Source: Octopus vulgaris | Taxonomy: Eukaryota | DNA length: 64,000 nt | Direction: 5' to 3' | NCBI GenBank assembly: GCA_951406725.2 | Contig: OX597838.1 | Location: 30,318,001-30,382,000 of the forward strand | In this document: positions 12,733 through 61,948 of the stretch, in pieces | How positions within the stretch are numbered: position 1 is the stretch's first letter | Layout of the letters: each line of letters starts with the position of its first letter | The notes under the pieces: generated by a model | What the model was told of the DNA's origin: nothing | Database searches by the model: none | Seen by the model: only the letters and a program-made list of their open reading frames with translations | Program-made: the position numbers and the translations under genes

Positions 12733-13215
12733 GAAAGTTGGTTTGTGAAAGCACGTGGTTGAATATATAGAAAATAGTAAAAAGTGAAAAAACTACAGAA
12801 GGCTTAAAGGTTAAAAAATATATATATTTGCGTCAATATGTCTGAAGAATATTAAAAATTTTTTTCTTACAATGACATAGTTTAGAAGAAATATATATAT
12901 ATATATATATATAGAATTAAATGACAAGGGATGGGGAATTACAGAAATAATTTCATTAGCTTACCGCCGTTTCTGCTGAAAGTTGCGGTGCTCTCAGAGC
13001 TAAGTGCTTGAGCATCATCTGATACGCTTCTACTTCACCTTATAGCTTCCTCGAAGCTCCGAGGAAGCTATATGGTGGTTAACAACCACTCAGCTCTCTG
13101 TTCTCACGGCAGAAACAGTTGTAAGCTCATGAAAATTGTCTAGATAATCTCTGTTCCTTAATCATTTATTTAATTTCATATTACGCTCTGTACTCACCTA
13201 ACGCTGTATTCTGTG

Positions 13216-14748: not shown

Positions 14749-15648
<900 letters not shown>

Positions 15649-16827: not shown

Positions 16828-16870
16828 TGCTTAATAATCCTGTACTGACATTTATTTTTTGAAATTCCAG

Positions 16871-17038
16871 CATGTGAGAAAAACATAGACGTAAACTTCG
16901 TGTTTGATTCCGGCATGTTGGGCGACCAAGGTACGGCGAACGTTGTTAAATTCATCGAGAGTTCAATTTCTGGTAAGGATCTTTCTAGAAGCAACATCAG
17001 ATTTGGAACAGTTGCTGGGCCGTGCAACAAAGTCTATG
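16871..17038 (+). CDS. vWA domain 2, N-terminal exon (PCEKNIDVNFVFDSGML...IRFGTVAGPCNKVY)
   Basis: ttccag acceptor, G|GTAAGA donor, 168 nt, phase 1-1; vWA strand A (DVNFVFDS) and strand B (IRFGTV). Confidence 0.88.
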
Positions 17039-17218
17039 GTAAGAATAATACAGTCATCCTAACTTAATGCTTGTCATTTAATATTGTTTTTGTTTAGCCC
17101 TTGGTAATCCAAAATCCAGCACGTCCTACGACCAATAACATACTGTCCGTTATGATATTAGGGTTGCGTGTCTGCAACTTGCATTATGTGATACAATATC
17201 TTTTTTGACTTCATTTCT

Positions 17219-17426
<208 letters not shown>

Positions 17427-17586
17427 GGAATAAATCCAAACTTACAGGGAAAAATCAGATTTAGGATTGAATCCAATTTTATAGTAAAATATTATATTAT
17501 ATTAAATTAGAGATAAAACCACTATTAGGCAAATCAAACAATGAAAAACTTAAGCCAATACAAAAATTAATTAATACATATATATG

Positions 17587-17647
<61 letters not shown>

Positions 17648-17653
<6 letters not shown>

Positions 17654-17843
17654 TATATAGAAGGAGCTTCTACAGGACTAGAACTGTTTCATTCAAAAGA
17701 AATCATCAGGAAGCTTCCTGATGATTTCTTTTGAATGAAACAGTTCTAGTCCTGTAGAAGCTCCTTCTATATAATAAATTAATTTACTCTGCTATGTATT
17801 GAGTACCTTATTTACTGTGGTTAACCCGACTCAACCCGGGACC

Positions 17844-17846
<3 letters not shown>
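17648..17846. mobile_element. Fold-back hammerhead element in (TA)n
   Basis: Perfect 132-bp palindrome 17648-17779 centred on AAG|CTT plus a one-sided tail. Confidence 0.75.
17712..17762 (+). ncRNA. Type I hammerhead ribozyme motif (mirror copy on minus strand in the other palindrome arm)
   Basis: AGCTTC-CTGATGA-TTTCTTTTGAAT-GAAACAG-TTCTAGTC-CTGTA-GAAGCT; stem II is weak with a U-U at its base. Confidence 0.72.
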
Positions 17847-17889
<43 letters not shown>

Positions 17890-18296
17890 TAGATAGATAT
17901 AGATATAGATATAGATATATAATATAAATAATATATAAATATATGCATATATACATACATATATATGTATATATACATGCATATATGTGTACAGGACATC
18001 AAAAAAAAAAAAACGTTGAACACAATGAGAAACGAATATATAAAAATAAAAACATAGAAACGAACTTTTTTTTCGAACAACGAAAAAAAAAGAACTGAGA
18101 AACGAGACATACAACATAAAGAATATTCCCCTTCATCAGTTGTCCTTGTTTCATCTACTCCACGTATTCGAAGGCACGGACAACATGTCGCATGTCTCCT
18201 TTCTCTGTTTTTTCGTAGGTATATACATATATGTATGTATATATGCATATATTTATAATTATTATTATATGCCACGCATCCTATTCCAAGTAAGTT

Positions 18297-18415
<119 letters not shown>

Positions 18416-18434
18416 CCTACCTACCTACCTACCA

Positions 18435-18641
<207 letters not shown>

Positions 18642-18707
18642 TGAAAGAAGTAAAAAATAAAATATTTGATATATATATAAATTTTTTGCGTTGTTTTTTT
18701 TTTACAG

Positions 18708-19079
18708 GTTTCGCCTTAAATCGGTATCAAACCAAAGAGGATATATTGAGACATTTCGACCAATTTCACCAAACGTCCCTCGCACCTCTTCTAACGGACA
18801 CCAAAGACAAATCTTTCAGCTTTCAAAGCGGCGGCCGTCCTGGAGCGCGTAAGGTCGCGGTTATTTTCCTAAAAGGAAAACTGAACGATCCAAGCGGAGT
18901 GGCTGCAAGAGCGAGTGCCCTTCGCAATAGTGGCGTTGAGGTGTTTGTCGTTAACATGGATAACATGAATTCGAGACAGACTTTGGAAACCATTGCATCA
19001 CCCGGCAATATTCTGGACGGCGATCGGGGAACGAGCATGGTGCTGTTGAGCAGGCAATTCTCAGACCGGCTTTGTAGAC
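18708..19079 (+). CDS. vWA domain 2, C-terminal exon (GFALNRYQTKEDIL...GGRPGARKVAVIFLKG...GVEVFVV...RLCR)
   Basis: tttttttacag acceptor, C|GTAAGT donor, 372 nt, phase 1-1; typical vWA motifs F-x-L-N-x-Y, RPGARKVAVI, GVEVFVV and terminal Cys. Confidence 0.9.
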
Positions 19080-39349: not shown

Positions 39350-40631
39350 TCAGGTCATTCCATAAGTTCTGTACGAATTTTGAATAAAGAAAACAAGTGA
39401 TCAAAGTTATATTTAATAGAAATTTAATCATCAATGTACTTTCCCTGATTATCTATGACTTCCTTCCATCTATTTACAAGCTTTTTAATCCCATCAATGT
39501 AAAACTCTTTGGGTTTCAAAGCGAAGAACTCTGAAATGTCAGTTTTCGACCTCCTAGATGCGAAAGTTATGTCTACCAAATGATTCTGTAAACTACGAAA
39601 CAAATGGTAGTCTGAAGGAGCAAGGTCGGGAGAATAAGGTGGATGAGGAATTTTTTCCCAACCAAGCCCTTCGATCTTCTGTGATGTGATCTTTGAAATA
39701 TGGGGTCGCGCATTTTCCTGATGAAACATCACTCCTTTTCAATTCACTATAGCGGGTCTTTTTTTCTTCAAAGCTTGGTTCAAACGCTTTAATTGCTGAC
39801 AGTAGACTTGAGCATTGATTGTTGCATTAGGTGGTAACAATTCAAAGTGAGTTACTCCATTGCAATCCCACCAGATAGAGAGAAGTGCCTTTTACCCATG
39901 AAGTTCCTTTCTCGGTTGTGATTGAGTTTTTTTCCTTTTTACCAAGCCACTGTTTACGACGTTTAACATTTCGATAGAAGATCCATTTTTCGTCACCAGT
40001 CACAAGTCTATCCAAAAAAGGGTGAAATGAGTTCGTGAGAATGGAGAGAAGAGCAGATGTTGACTCGGGATTTGCGGCTGCTTTCGGACAATTCATGAGG
40101 CACCCATTTTCCAAATTTAGGAACCTTTCCGAGTTGTTGAAGATGACGATGAACAGTTGTATGGTTTGAACTAAGCTTTATTGCCAATTCTTCAATTGAT
40201 AATGCAGGATTTTCTTCAAGTAATTCCTCAAAGAGCTTATCATCAAACTCAAATGGACATCCTGTTCGATCTTCATCTCCAAGGCTGAAATCTCCACTTC
40301 TTAATTTTGCGAACCATATTCTGCAAGTTCTCTCATTCAAGCATTCTTTCCAATAAACCGAGTGTATGTTTCGAGTCGCTTTGGCTGCAGAGTTTCCTTT
40401 TTTGTACTCATAAAGCATTATGTACCTCAAATGCTCTTTGGATACTTCCATGTTAGAAAGGGTTTTAACCAAAGAAATTTTAATTCTATTATTCTGTAAA
40501 ATAATATTTAATTAGCTTAAATGTACACAAATGCATAAAAATAATTTTAAATTCCATTGGGCATTCTGAAATACTATTAAATTTCATTCAGTTTTAAAAA
40601 TGGTAAAATCGGACAGAACTTATGGGATGAC

Positions 40632-40635: not shown

Positions 40636-40702
<67 letters not shown>

Positions 40703-40751
40703 AAACAAGTCAAAAATAGAAAATGCTAAAATAATTTTATAGTGAACATTT

Positions 40752-40789
40752 CAGTACCGGTTTCGGTCATTTTGAGACCTTTTCAACTG
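40752..40789 (-). ncRNA. Minimal type I hammerhead motif, U3-A8 core variant
   Basis: Minus strand: CAG-TTGAAAA-GGTC-TCAAAAT-GACC-GAAAC-CG-GTA-CTG; palindromic stem III ACCGGT. Confidence 0.75.
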
Positions 40790-41314
40790 TAACGATTAAA
40801 TAATTAAATTTAGAAAAATTAGAAGAAAAGTTTTTTTAAAGGAATATTTCTATAGTAGTGTTCAGATTTAAGTGGCATTCTGCCTTTCTCTGACTCCCTT
40901 GTTTGCACTTGTGTGTTGGAGGTCGTTGTGAGTTCTTGGTAGGGTAGTAGAGGAAGAAGGCTGGTGAGGAAAGGGGGTGGGAGAATCTGGGAGTGCCCTG
41001 ATGGTCGTATTTTGAATGGTCAGTGGCCTGTATTTTGCAATAAAGAGAGTTTCTTTACTTATTCGTTGTCTCGAGGTTGTATCGTCCCTAAATTGGTAGA
41101 GGGGGAAAATCCTGAAGCTTGGTGTTTTTTTGTTGGCGCAAGTATCTATGTGTTGGCTAAAAGCTATTTTTCTGTTTTGGGGAATTTTTATCTGGGATCT
41201 GTGCAGGGCCATTCGTTTAGGCAGAATGCCACTTAAATCTGAACACTACTATAGAAATATTCCTTTAAAAAAACTTTTCTTCTAATTTTTCTAAATTTAA
41301 TTATTTAATCGTTA

Positions 41315-41352
41315 CAGTTGAAAAGGTCTCAAAATGGCCGAAACCGGTACTG
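41315..41352 (+). ncRNA. Minimal type I hammerhead motif, U3-A8 variant (inverted copy)
   Basis: CAG-TTGAAAA-GGTC-TCAAAAT-GGCC-GAAAC-CG-GTA-CTG. Confidence 0.72.
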
Positions 41353-41435
41353 AAATGTTCACTATAAAATTATTTTAGCATTTTCTATTTTTGACTTGTT
41401 TTTTCATATATATCAACTCGTGTGTTCCTTTTCAC

Positions 41436-41470
<35 letters not shown>

Positions 41471-42014
41471 ACAGATAAAGTGTGAAATATAATTAATTTA
41501 ATAAAATCAATAAATTTCACCTAATAGTATTTTTCGGTATGGTAAAGGACCATATTCGGTAAAAATTTATATAATTATAACAGGGGTTTTTTGCAACAAG
41601 TTGTTTAAACCACATACCGAAAATATATTTCTAATATTTTCAGTATGCAACTTGTTGCAAAAAAACCCTATTATAATTGTGCCTTAATACATTCACCGGT
41701 AAAATTTCCATTTTTTTTTTCTTATTTTTATTGTCCTAACATTTTCGTTGCGTCTTGCAACCTTTTCAATAGTTTTGACTCATTGTTGGATGCTTGGAAA
41801 TTGTGTGCCAAAGAAGGAGAGTCAAGACTATTGAAAAGTTTGAAAGACGCGACGAAAATTTTAGGACAATAAAAATAAGAAAAAAGTGGAAATTTTACCG
41901 GTAAGTGTGTTAAATAATAAGGCACAAAAAGAAAATTACTCTCCCCAGACACATCAGAATATGCTTCAACACACGAACTCGTATAAAGAATCTTGCAAAC
42001 CAAATCCCAAAACG

Positions 42015-42501: not shown

Positions 42502-42557
<56 letters not shown>

Positions 42558-42562
42558 GTACG

Positions 42563-42820
42563 CTATGTGGACGCCCTTACGCTAAAAAGAGATCCGCGTG
42601 AGTCTCAACCACTAAGAAGAGACTCACGCGGATCTCTTTTAGCGTAAGGGCGTCCACGTAGTGGATTCTCTCTCATATTTATGTATTAATAATATTTACT
42701 GAATCTCAGTTTTTTATGCGCTAAACCACTGGTGTTAAATTGGTGTTATTAAACTAATATCCAATTTTTCACCCTCATTTTGACTATATATATATATATA
42801 TTATTCATATATATATATAC

Positions 42821-42869
<49 letters not shown>

Positions 42870-43128
42870 GTATATATATGAATATATATATATATATATA
42901 TATATAGTCAAAATGAGGGTGAAAAATTGGATATTAGTTTAATAACACCAATTTAACACCAGTGGTTTAGCGCATAAAAAACTGAGATTCAGTAAATATT
43001 ATCAATACATAAATATGAGAGAGAATCCACTATGTGGACGCCCTTACGCTAAAAAGAGATCCGCGTGAGTCTCTTCTTAGTGGTTGAGACTCACGCGGAT
43101 CTCTTTTTAGCGTAAGGGCGTCCACATA
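42563..43128. repeat. Nested palindrome: two fold-back units inverted around a TA spacer
   Basis: 42563-42788 is the reverse complement of 42903-43128; each unit ends in a ~43-bp hairpin with loop aaccactaagaa / ttcttagtggtt. Confidence 0.85.
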
Positions 43129-43409
43129 ATGTATGTATATATATAATAATAAGAGTAAATAATTTCTATAATGGTTCTTAAAAAAAGACCACAATTATTT
43201 ACTGGTAGAATTCGGTATGTAAATATAGCCGGTTAACGGTAGGAACTTGTGTAAAGTTCTGTATATATATTGTAAATAAGAAAAAAGGGACAGGCAACAG
43301 GTTGCTTGACCGCATACTTGTGGAAAATAGAAATAAGCATTCTTGACTGCTATTTCTACTTTTTCGGTATGCGGTCAAGCAACCTGTTGCCTGTCCCTTT
43401 TTTCTATAT

Positions 43410-43464
<55 letters not shown>

Positions 43465-43469
<5 letters not shown>

Positions 43470-43666
43470 TCCCGGGTTGATACGGGGTTAACCACAGTAA
43501 GTAAGGTACTCAATACATAGCAGAGTAAAATTAATTTATTATATATGAAGGAGCTTCTACAGGACTAGTACTGTTTCATTCAAGAGAAATCTTCAGGAAG
43601 CTTCCTGAAGATTTCTCTTGAATGAAACAGTACTAGTCCTGTAGAAGCTCCTTCTATATAATAAAT

Positions 43667-43670
<4 letters not shown>
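43465..43670. mobile_element. Fold-back hammerhead element, second copy of the 17648 family in opposite orientation
   Basis: Palindrome centred at 43600|43601 (AAG|CTT); same tail sequence; (TA)n flanks. Confidence 0.75.
43599..43649 (+). ncRNA. Type I hammerhead ribozyme motif, same family as 17712 (mirror copy on minus strand)
   Basis: AGCTTC-CTGAAGA-TTTCTCTTGAAT-GAAACAG-TACTAGTC-CTGTA-GAAGCT; differences from the 17.7 kb copy fall at N7 and in loops. Confidence 0.72.
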
Positions 43671-47720: not shown

Positions 47721-47761
<41 letters not shown>

Positions 47762-47812
47762 GTATAGGAAAGAATGGAGCTGAACGAAGATTTAACAAAA
47801 TTCCTTTAATTT

Positions 47813-47895
47813 ATTTTCGACATATGTTTCGAAGTCTGCAAAGTCCCAAATTCCGATTGAATGAGTCCATTTTGCAGCTTTCTCTTCAGGAAAAT
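47813..47895 (-). ncRNA. Type I hammerhead ribozyme motif (inverted copy of 47998-48083)
   Basis: Reverse complement of the same motif with a small deletion in loop II. Confidence 0.85.
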
Positions 47896-47997
47896 CCAGG
47901 AACTTAATTCTCCAACAAAATGCACAACAAGCTTTTCGACAAACGCTCACGAGGAGCCCACGAAATTGTGCATTTTGTTGGAGAATTAAGTTCCTGG

Positions 47998-48083
47998 ATT
48001 TTCCTGAAGAGAAAGCTGCAAAATGGACTCCTTATTCAATCGGAATTTGGGACTTTGCAGACTTCGAAACATATGTCGAAAAT
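47998..48083 (+). ncRNA. Type I hammerhead ribozyme motif with long stem II
   Basis: ATTTTC-CTGAAGA-GAAAGCTGCAAA...TTTGCAGACTTC-GAAAC-ATAT-GTC-GAAAAT; GUC triplet, palindromic stem III ACATATGT. Confidence 0.88.
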
Positions 48084-48297
48084 AAAATAAAATAAAATAA
48101 AGGAATTTTGTTAAATCTTCGTTCAGCTCCATTCTTTCCTATACTTAATATGTAAAACTTCAAATTTCCGCACTAAGGCTCGGATTTTATGCCCCATGGT
48201 CGTAACTTCAACCGTGCCCTTTCTGTTGTGAATTTTGCTACCCAGGTATCGGTTATCTTTCGAATTATCCGTAATAAGATAATTCATTTATCTACTT

Positions 48298-49190: not shown

Positions 49191-50486
49191 CGAGGGGCGT
49201 TCAATAAGTAATGCCTCTGACCCACTTGCAGTTGTTTGATCTAGCTGAAAATTTACATGTGCAATTATTTATATCTCTATAGATTAAGTGGCAAATTACA
49301 GCTCTGAACTAATTGTGGTTTCTGATTTACAGGTGTTTGAACTGAGTCAAGTGTGAAATGGAGCCTGTTGAGTGTCGAGCAGTGATCCGGTTTTTGTATT
49401 TGAAAGGACGCACACTACGGGAGACATTTGATGAAATGAAAGTAACTTATGGTGATGATGCCCCATCATATGACCTTGTAAAACGCTGGCATCGTGAATT
49501 CAAACATGGTTGGAACTCAGTGGAAACAGCTCCCAGATCTGGTCGCCCCCTTCTGCCATTGATGAGGCATCTGTCCGTCAAGTTGAGGCTGCCATTTTGG
49601 AAGATCGACGCATAACTATTCGCCAAATAGCCCATGAGGTCAAGTTTAGTACCGGGTCTGTGAAAACTATCATTCATGACCATTTGCATATGCAAAAGGT
49701 GTCTGGCAGATGGATTCCCAGGTTGCTCACACCTTTCCAGAAGCAAGAACGCGTCGAGTGCTCGAGGATGAATTTGGAGATGTGCCAAGAAGATGAGTCA
49801 AAATTTTTCAAAAGACTGATTACACAGGATGAAATCTGGGTCAATCACTATGATCCAGAGACCAAAGCCCAGTCAATGCAGTGGAAGCACCGTGACTCAC
49901 CTCCTCCAAAGAAGGCAAGGGTGCAGCCCTCCACTGGCAAGGTCATGCTCACAGTCTTCTGGGACCAGGACGGAGTAGTGATGACAGATTTCCTGGCAAA
50001 GGGTACCACAATTACAGAGGAGCCTATTATGCTTCACTTTTGAGGAAATTAAGAGAAGCTATCAAAATCAAGAGGTGGAGCAAGATCAGCAAAGGCATCC
50101 TCCTCCTGCAGGACAACGCTCCGGTCTACAACTCGCGTGTCGCCAGATCAGAAGCACAGGCGTGCGGCTATGAACTCCTCCCCCATCCCCCCCCATCTCT
50201 CTTGACCTTGCACCCTCTGATTTTCACCTCTTCCCAGCCATGAAGTTGTTTTTGAAAGGAAAGCGTTTCCCAGATGATGCAGCCTTGATTTCTGAGGTCA
50301 CGTCGTGGTTGGAGCACCAAGCTGGGGTCTTCTACAAAAACGGTCTCCAGAGTTGCATCAAACGATAGGAGAAATGTGTAACTCTGAGTGGTTCCTATGT
50401 AGAAAAAGACTAATAACTGTGCCAAGTTTCGTTGCTCTACTGCTATGGGAAGTGGGTCAGGGGCATTACTTATTGAACGTCCCTCG
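49191..50486 (+). mobile_element. Mariner transposon, full length, decayed transposase (49358-50413)
   Basis: TIRs cgaggggcgttcaataagtaatgcc / ggcattacttattgaacgtccctcg with TA TSD; motifs WIPRLL, ITQDEIW, LQDNAPVY; frameshifts. Confidence 0.95.
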
Positions 50487-59931: not shown

Positions 59932-60791
59932 CAATAATAATAATAGTGTCCACAGCCAGCAGACTAAGTTGACACTTGGTGGCTGACGATATGCGTATTT
60001 CTGATCACGAGAAGGGGTGGCGGAGCGTCATGGTCATGTGTTGAGAGGAATTCTTTGGGATTAGAATAATTCACCCCGGGAAACATGGGTGTTTTTTTTT
60101 TTTTTTTCATAATCCTTAAGCAAATCTTAATTAAGGGACCTTTTGAGCGGGATGGACAACTCGACCTGAAAAAAATTCTAACTGGGCCCCACTAGCTGTT
60201 AATCTTGATATGAGATCACCATGTCGTGTACATATGGTTGTGATGCATGCGACTGGTGTACCCTTATCAGACGGGTCATCATGATGGGTATACTGGGCTT
60301 CGTATATTTGTACCTTGATTACTTGTGTTGCTCTCTCACTCAATAACAATAACAACAACACCAATGATAATAATAATAATAATCGTTTTTATTATATCAC
60401 AAGGCTAGAATTTTTTTGGAGGAGGGGACTAGTCGATTACATCGATCCCAATGTTTCACTGGTACTTAATTTATCGACCCCTAAAGGATGAAAGGCAAAG
60501 TTGACCTCAGTTGAACTTGAACACAAAATGTAGCGACGGGCGAAATACCTATTTCTTTACTACCCACAAGGGGCTAAACACAGAGAGGACAAACAAGGAC
60601 AGATAAACGGATTAAGTCGATTATATCGACCCCAGTGCGTAACTGGTACTTATTTAATTGACCTCGAAAGGATGAAAGGCAAAGTCGACCTCGGTGGAAT
60701 TTGAACTCAGAGCGTAACGGCAGACGAAATACCGCTAAGCATTTTACCCTGCGTGCAACGTTTCTGCCAACTCACCACCTTAATAATAATG

Positions 60792-60884
<93 letters not shown>

Positions 60885-60901
60885 GTAATAATAATAATAA
60901 T

Positions 60902-61948
<1,047 letters not shown>

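Follow-up and report, generated by a model that had tools for sequence, protein, structure and literature searches.

Two loop-less hammerhead palindromes of Octopus vulgaris, very probably remnants of Penelope-like insertions into (TA)n, share a favoured turn point at AGCT

The question raised by this locus is why two separate repeat copies fold back on themselves at the same point, with no loop between their arms, and whether that point is dictated by the sequence. The window, meaning the whole analysed stretch of 64,000 nucleotides (64 kb) from Octopus vulgaris contig OX597838.1, was scanned for palindromes at every centre with simple repeats set aside. We observed that, outside simple repeats, perfect loop-less palindromes occur at two centres only, both on AG|CT, namely 17713|17714 in copy 1 and 43600|43601 in copy 2. 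The 66-bp arms of copy 1 match at 66 of 66 positions with no mismatch, and those of copy 2 are perfect over 54 bp (54/54) and reach 69-70 bp with one 1-nt indel, the chance expectation for arms of at least 54 bp in 64 kb being about 1e-26. These counts confirm the common loop-less axis reported in a preliminary description of this DNA, as well as its observation that differences between the copies are mirrored in both arms, since the copies differ at 3 of 54 positions (arm positions 9, 17 and 32) and each change is found in both arms of its copy, as listed there. The same description regarded the arms of each copy as self-matched, which holds without exception for copy 1 and for the 54 perfect positions of copy 2, but copy 2 has one extra base in its long arm only. 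The flanks of the two copies are unrelated over about 1 kb per side, and all four outer ends enter (TA)n runs of 27-54 nt, in which any target-site duplication would be hidden.

With reference to the individual parts, copy 1 comprises a short arm (17648-17713, minus strand), which is an inverted pLTR-like end without a tail and is complementary to 17714-17779 at 66/66 positions, and a long arm (17714-17846, plus strand), which is 92.6% identical to the long arm of copy 2 over 136 columns and alone carries a 67-nt tail (17780-17846, plus strand). Its (TA)n target forms a 54-nt run on the left (17594-17647) and a 41-nt run on the right (17847-17887). Copy 2 has its long arm on the minus strand (43465-43600, with the tail at approximately 43465-43530) and its short arm on the plus strand (43601-43669), the latter being 98.6% identical to the long arm with one indel. 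Each arm displays a type I hammerhead motif whose stems I, II and III measure 6, 3 and 4 bp, with a conserved core. In copy 1 the motif at 17712-17762 (plus strand) has a predicted cut at 17756|17757, 13 of 13 pairs Watson-Crick and a folding energy of -7.3 kcal/mol, and follows the pattern in the relevant part of PMC8557442 File S2; its mirror, detected by a minus-strand motif scan, lies at 17665-17715. The two motifs of copy 2 likewise overlap within 43552-43649 (43552-43602, minus; 43599-43649, plus). All three changes between the copies fall at unpaired places of the hammerhead. Along the 6-nt 5' strand of stem I, the axis falls between the second and the third base, and the earlier statement that the turn overlaps this strand is thus correct. 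The turn point itself is a native 4-nt palindrome, AGCT (17712-17715), as seen from the palindrome list and from the loose ends of unfolded copies, which start at 17712/17715. Rfam was searched with the window and with 6 of the 81 metagenome loci described below, and no family reached gathering score; the microRNA matches obtained were rejected, as they merely reflect the hairpin. Copy 1 is located in an intron (host context 16870-19078, plus strand) between exons 16870-17040 and 18692-19078 of a vWA-domain collagen XII-like gene, these exons being 94% identical to an Octopus sinensis collagen XII-like protein by tblastn.

Each copy is very probably a short remnant of one insertion of a Penelope-like element (PLE), in which two hammerhead terminal repeats stand head to head in (TA)n and one of them is tailed. 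The features consistent with this are a putative type I hammerhead in a terminal repeat, an inverted 5'-truncated copy placed head to head, and a tail on one end only. Two 3' ends are family-wide, as the short ends fall at 17777-17783 in four public sequencing runs and the long end is common to both copies. The (TA)n target and the canonical hammerhead near the 3' end are features of the Hydra clade, and the motif agrees with the Hydra-clade entries in the part of the published table considered (core, short stem II, TGAA and 4-bp stem III), although Neptune or other clades may also apply. No frame with reverse transcriptase plus GIY-YIG is evident near the copies in the list of open reading frames of the window, and contigs from the runs continue up to about 630 nt upstream of the element. 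Among other classes considered, the Naiad clade is defined by the lack of a canonical hammerhead, which is present here. A non-LTR retrozyme needs a direct tandem array, and the window holds four arms only, in two inverted pairs. A MITE does not agree with a 67-nt tail outside the repeat at one end, with centres that vary, or with the existence of unfolded copies.

The layout of an inverted pLTR plus tail is already known, and the octopus copies are a further case of a described structure. In endonuclease-bearing PLEs an inverted 5'-truncated copy with an optional tail is typical (PMC8557442, relevant sections), and palindromes at the inverted junction have been reported, with self-priming as the proposed origin (passages of PMC3846280). 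Head-to-head repeats, a junction palindrome, a one-arm tail, strong 5' truncation and (TA)n are shared with the elements in these sources, whereas the octopus copies consist of ends only, have a tail of 67 nt rather than 30-40, and display one exact loop-less axis in both. The Hydra clade targets (TA)n and occurs in Octopus, and its members, including Hydra-1_Obim and Penelope-13_HM, share the near-3' hammerhead and the plan of core and stem III; for one family the listing includes an inverted 5' copy (PMC8557442 and its Files S1 and S2, in the portions considered). The hammerhead sequence given there for Hydra-1_Obim differs from that of the octopus element, and five short words of the latter found no true match in the portion of the PMC8557442 supplement that was searched. 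Minimal hammerheads of PLE pLTRs also have the type I fold in terminal repeats, and pairs on opposite strands are reported about 100-700 bp apart in the relevant sections of PMC4209133, whereas the octopus motifs overlap at stem I. Folding energies are -118.5 kcal/mol for the hairpin and -42.5 kcal/mol with the ribozyme forced, and by this model the hairpin should block the two overlapping predicted ribozymes. Non-LTR retrozymes (PMC7229834; bioRxiv 10.64898/2026.07.22.740005) resemble the copies in being short non-coding units with a type I hammerhead related to PLE ends, but in the parts of these sources considered they are direct tandem arrays, unlike the single inverted pairs of the octopus.

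The family extends well beyond the window, as at least half of 13 sampled family words were present in 20 of the 24 listed runs, from five organisms. The 24 runs were all in contig form, and the anatomy of the family was drawn from four of these public runs, which disclosed a high-copy family including unfolded copies. Two arms per tail look common in the family, because arm depth was 1.8-3.3 times tail depth in all four runs by a rough measure. Loose (TA)n ends clustered at 17777-17783 in 4/4 runs, inside a 12-bp AT palindrome (17775-17786), and the short end is therefore a feature of the family. The preliminary description held that the short arms end at different points; the ends, at arm positions 66 in copy 1 and 69 in copy 2, are only about 3 nt apart and lie inside this one clustered end point. 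Two markers that separate copies 1 and 2 had shares of 0.40-0.79 that rose and fell in parallel from run to run, a pattern suggestive of two subfamilies and of insertions that occurred independently, and the third shared variant was merely unlisted at a 2% threshold in the runs.

Both short reads and assembly graphs disfavour perfect palindromes. No contig piece from the four runs spans either whole palindromic stretch, and neither locus is spanned by an independent read or contig; depth at the axis was only 0.11-0.23 of arm depth, and loop-less centres cannot show as joints. The lack of a spanning read or contig and the low depth at the axis would fit a chimera of assembly or amplification, which we nevertheless consider hardly credible. 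The centre is bridged by 5 of 32 listed contig pieces, with at least 31 letters on each side and in two organisms, each with a 4-11-nt deletion, and the excess of arm over tail depth appears in every run. Again, the arms end at family-wide points and then pass into (TA)n with no mirrored flank, and unrelated data, given below, show the same layout with target duplications.

The preliminary description also proposed that the turn point is programmed by the sequence, and this is not supported as a rule, since 35 other joints were found in the same family in the four runs. Microhomology of 1-4 nt was present in 12 of the 15 joints shown of these 35. Some joints are very lopsided, and in one of them (17713 to 17787) one arm ends exactly at AG|CT. 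Symmetry within 6 nt was seen in 11 of 23 joints, comprising the 15 shown and 8 further ones, with 3 duplicate rows and the row of the 14-nt form set aside. Hammerhead cleavage was rejected as the main rule for the turn, as a location within about 2 nt of the cut was seen for 5 of 46 arm starts, close to what an even spread gives.

For comparison, a pattern specific to the family gave 0 matches in viral contigs and 0 in metagenome contigs. A generic pattern, requiring two head-to-head hammerhead cores with a fixed 14-nt stem II span and at most 30 nt between cores, detected 5 loci in viral contigs, one being a chance sequence without arms, and 81 loci in metagenome contigs, of which 60 are distinct; both the pattern and the assemblers bias this metagenome sample against perfect palindromes. 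The metagenome loci are probably animal host DNA, and most have arms of about 80-130 bp. Only 11/60 turn close to the core (at most 10 nt between cores), so stem I was rejected as a general turn rule, and a junction is common to 2 of 44 within-family pairs. The shared turn point of the window copies is thus a favoured spot and not the sole one. An AC(A/T)GT-like word lies between the cores in 12/60 loci. Loop-less centres of other families (L044 and L009, L020, L032) are also found on 4-nt palindromes (AGCT, ACGT, TCGA). In the families of L029, L040, L066, L075 and of L013, L014, L035 the tail has an ATG followed by a few similar codons, and such tails resemble a pLTR running into the start of a reading frame.

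Sixteen loci belong to families with at least three members. In 9/16 of them the arm ends are 28-38 nt apart, and duplications of at least 11 nt flank 6/16, among them 4/4 pairs of one family, whose target duplications have 13-15 nt (one mismatch). Since these duplications surround the whole pair, one insertion makes the pair. At 12 sites in 8/16 loci a variant confined to one locus occurs in both of its arms, and one-arm sites numbered 94, of which 41 came from two loci. Arms of sufficient length were available in 47 loci, and their similarity reached 95% or more in 19 and stayed under 85% in 11; arms within metagenome loci appear to drift apart with age. Gene conversion, which had been put forward as a way of keeping the arms alike, is accordingly not needed, given these 11 diverged loci and the one-arm indel that copy 2 keeps.

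A related explanation is that the palindrome arose once and is itself the mobile unit, with its arms kept alike by gene conversion or hairpin repair and its axis inherited. Such inheritance would agree with the axis common to 2/2 copies, and another joint reached a depth of 1135 in a single contig of run X3, so that a junction can be multi-copy. Private arm changes were also fewer than expected (P=0.045) if all tail differences arose after insertion, but the tail is polymorphic in the family, which makes this premise doubtful. The two copies moreover carry different states of the co-moving markers, unfolded copies and many other joints exist, and the arms of other fold-backs diverge. We therefore regard an inherited palindrome as quite improbable.

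Snap-back of a single cDNA, which we consider possible though rather doubtful, is a close rival of the mechanism preferred below. According to it, a cDNA copied from a template with a 14-nt palindrome would continue beyond the axis by a few bases, fold into a 5-bp stem with an AGCT loop and prime its own second strand, and cutting or jumping at the AT palindrome close to 17780 would set the short end. Two upstream forms were obtained from unfolded copies. In the commoner form the native palindrome is AGCT alone (10 contigs in run X4; 17 plus 9 in run X3), which speaks against plain snap-back, because a 4-nt native palindrome is too short for a hairpin stem and the 14-nt form is needed. The second form, whose native palindrome spans 14 nt about that centre, was seen in one contig in each of three runs; one further fold-back has it in both arms, so this form was in a template, and its hairpin folds at -3.7 kcal/mol with context. 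The joint from 17698 to 17733 fits a fold-back on the stem II loop, and the symmetric joints (11/23) are in favour of snap-back as well. Self-priming has been proposed for PLE junction palindromes (PMC3846280, relevant passages), and R2 elements have documented 5' junctions of this kind, in which the cDNA 3' end primes on itself and gives an inverted segment; R2 is a different element class, and a clustered second end or tail is not described in the sections of PMC11371274 considered. Snap-back on the 14-nt form suits the axis of the window copies well. It requires an extra step for the clustered short end, fits lopsided joints and centres with a 1-nt spacer poorly, and finds no excess of symmetric centres in the 60 metagenome loci.

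We tentatively prefer, at somewhat below even chance, that two cDNAs from one transcript annealed at AGCT. The element's endonuclease would nick both strands of a (TA)n site, and its reverse transcriptase would prime a cDNA at each nick, with a distal start (17846) and a proximal start (about 17780). Both cDNAs would share one RNA as template, or copy two units of a single tandem transcript, and both would stop early; their 3' ends may then anneal at a short self-complementary word, here AGCT, followed by fill-in. One template would thus give self-matched arms, annealing at AGCT would give a loop-less centre able to recur in independent copies, and other microhomologies would give the other joints. 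For an Anolis PLE, the protein cuts and extends both strands, with two start sites that bound the tail (PMC11167929, relevant sections). The anatomy, the alternative joints, the clustered short end and the same layout with target duplications in other loci are observed, and the two-cDNA mechanism is favoured because it accounts for the clustered short end, for lopsided joints and for centres too tight for hairpin loops. A centre with a 0-1-nt spacer cannot be a hairpin loop unless a longer native palindrome exists. Additionally, symmetry of the metagenome junctions is no higher than independent truncation predicts, and the excess of symmetric centres is not significant (0-1-nt spacers in 13/60 loci against 9.2 expected, P=0.11).

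Several observations weigh against annealing of two cDNAs. The 67-nt tail exceeds the published 30-40 bp, the 14-nt upstream form would permit plain snap-back, and no PLE reading frame is linked to the family. Of the 28 metagenome loci for which a relative was available, just 14 had the partner arm as the closest match; in 8 one arm, and in 6 both arms, matched better elsewhere. The location of 2/2 window copies on one axis is unusual against the 2/44 pairs elsewhere. With regard to the template, both arms of each copy are likely to come from one template at insertion; the evidence from the two window copies is modest, because common markers of the family (0.40-0.79) make up two of the three shared variants. 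The earlier proposal that one arm is templated from the other at insertion by snap-back at a palindromic stem I is retained as to one template per insertion and as to the use of a short native palindrome in stem I, AGCT, for the turn.

An unlikely reading, which we state as such, identifies the favoured turn point with the 3' splice acceptor of a pLTR intron and not with stem I as such. Two unrelated upstream sequences join the element at the same AG|CT register. One of them resembles a retained intron, being rich in pyrimidines with TAG at its end, and the other could be a spliced first exon, which creates the 14-nt palindrome. CAG/TAG on either strand was present at 13 of 24 tight metagenome centres against 7.4 expected (P=0.005, a post hoc value from related families that are non-independent), and a simpler account, that microhomologies containing G/C anneal best in AT-rich DNA, predicts the same enrichment. 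In Drosophila virilis the intron ends at helix I (PMC4209133, relevant passage), and no published mapping of PLE junctions against stem I or a splice acceptor was found in the open literature, Repbase and Dfam being outside this scope. If the splice-acceptor reading were true, the points at which PLE cDNAs stop and are joined would be determined by splicing state, and three unexplained PLE traits (intron retention, inverted pLTRs and the hammerhead) would be tied together.

How PLEs build inverted ends is still called open in the relevant section of PMC8557442. Being young and high in copy number, the octopus family, with its diagnostic subfamily variants, clustered short end and numerous junctions, offers a natural experiment in which twin priming on one RNA, snap-back and conversion can be told apart. 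Moreover, copy 1 would contribute a perfect RNA stem of 64 bp to an intron; its ribozyme should thereby be silenced, and the stem could provide a substrate for editing or small-RNA pathways.

Other repeats were noticed in the window. Remnants at 40008-40511 and 49498-50043 resemble what we take to be mariner transposases, and another at 60662-61120 presumably resembles the terminal part of a LINE protein. An inverted repeat of about 300 bp surrounds a (TA)n run at 42519-43170, and each of its arms has its own inner inverted repeat of about 100 bp. Six more short fold-backs (15333-15601, 40699-41405, 41573-41678, 41684-41913, 43262-43421 and 47752-48154), several of them beside (TA)n, have no canonical hammerhead core, spacers of 2-333 nt, and arms ranging from near-identical to clearly diverged; they may represent the ends of further elements that target (TA)n, for instance Naiads. 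An old inverted pair of hammerhead-like motifs from another family, with diverged arms, adjoins (TA)n at 12915-13180, and contains a 21-bp palindrome with 2 mismatches, again on AG|CT (13056|13057), located 40-60 nt upstream of the cores.
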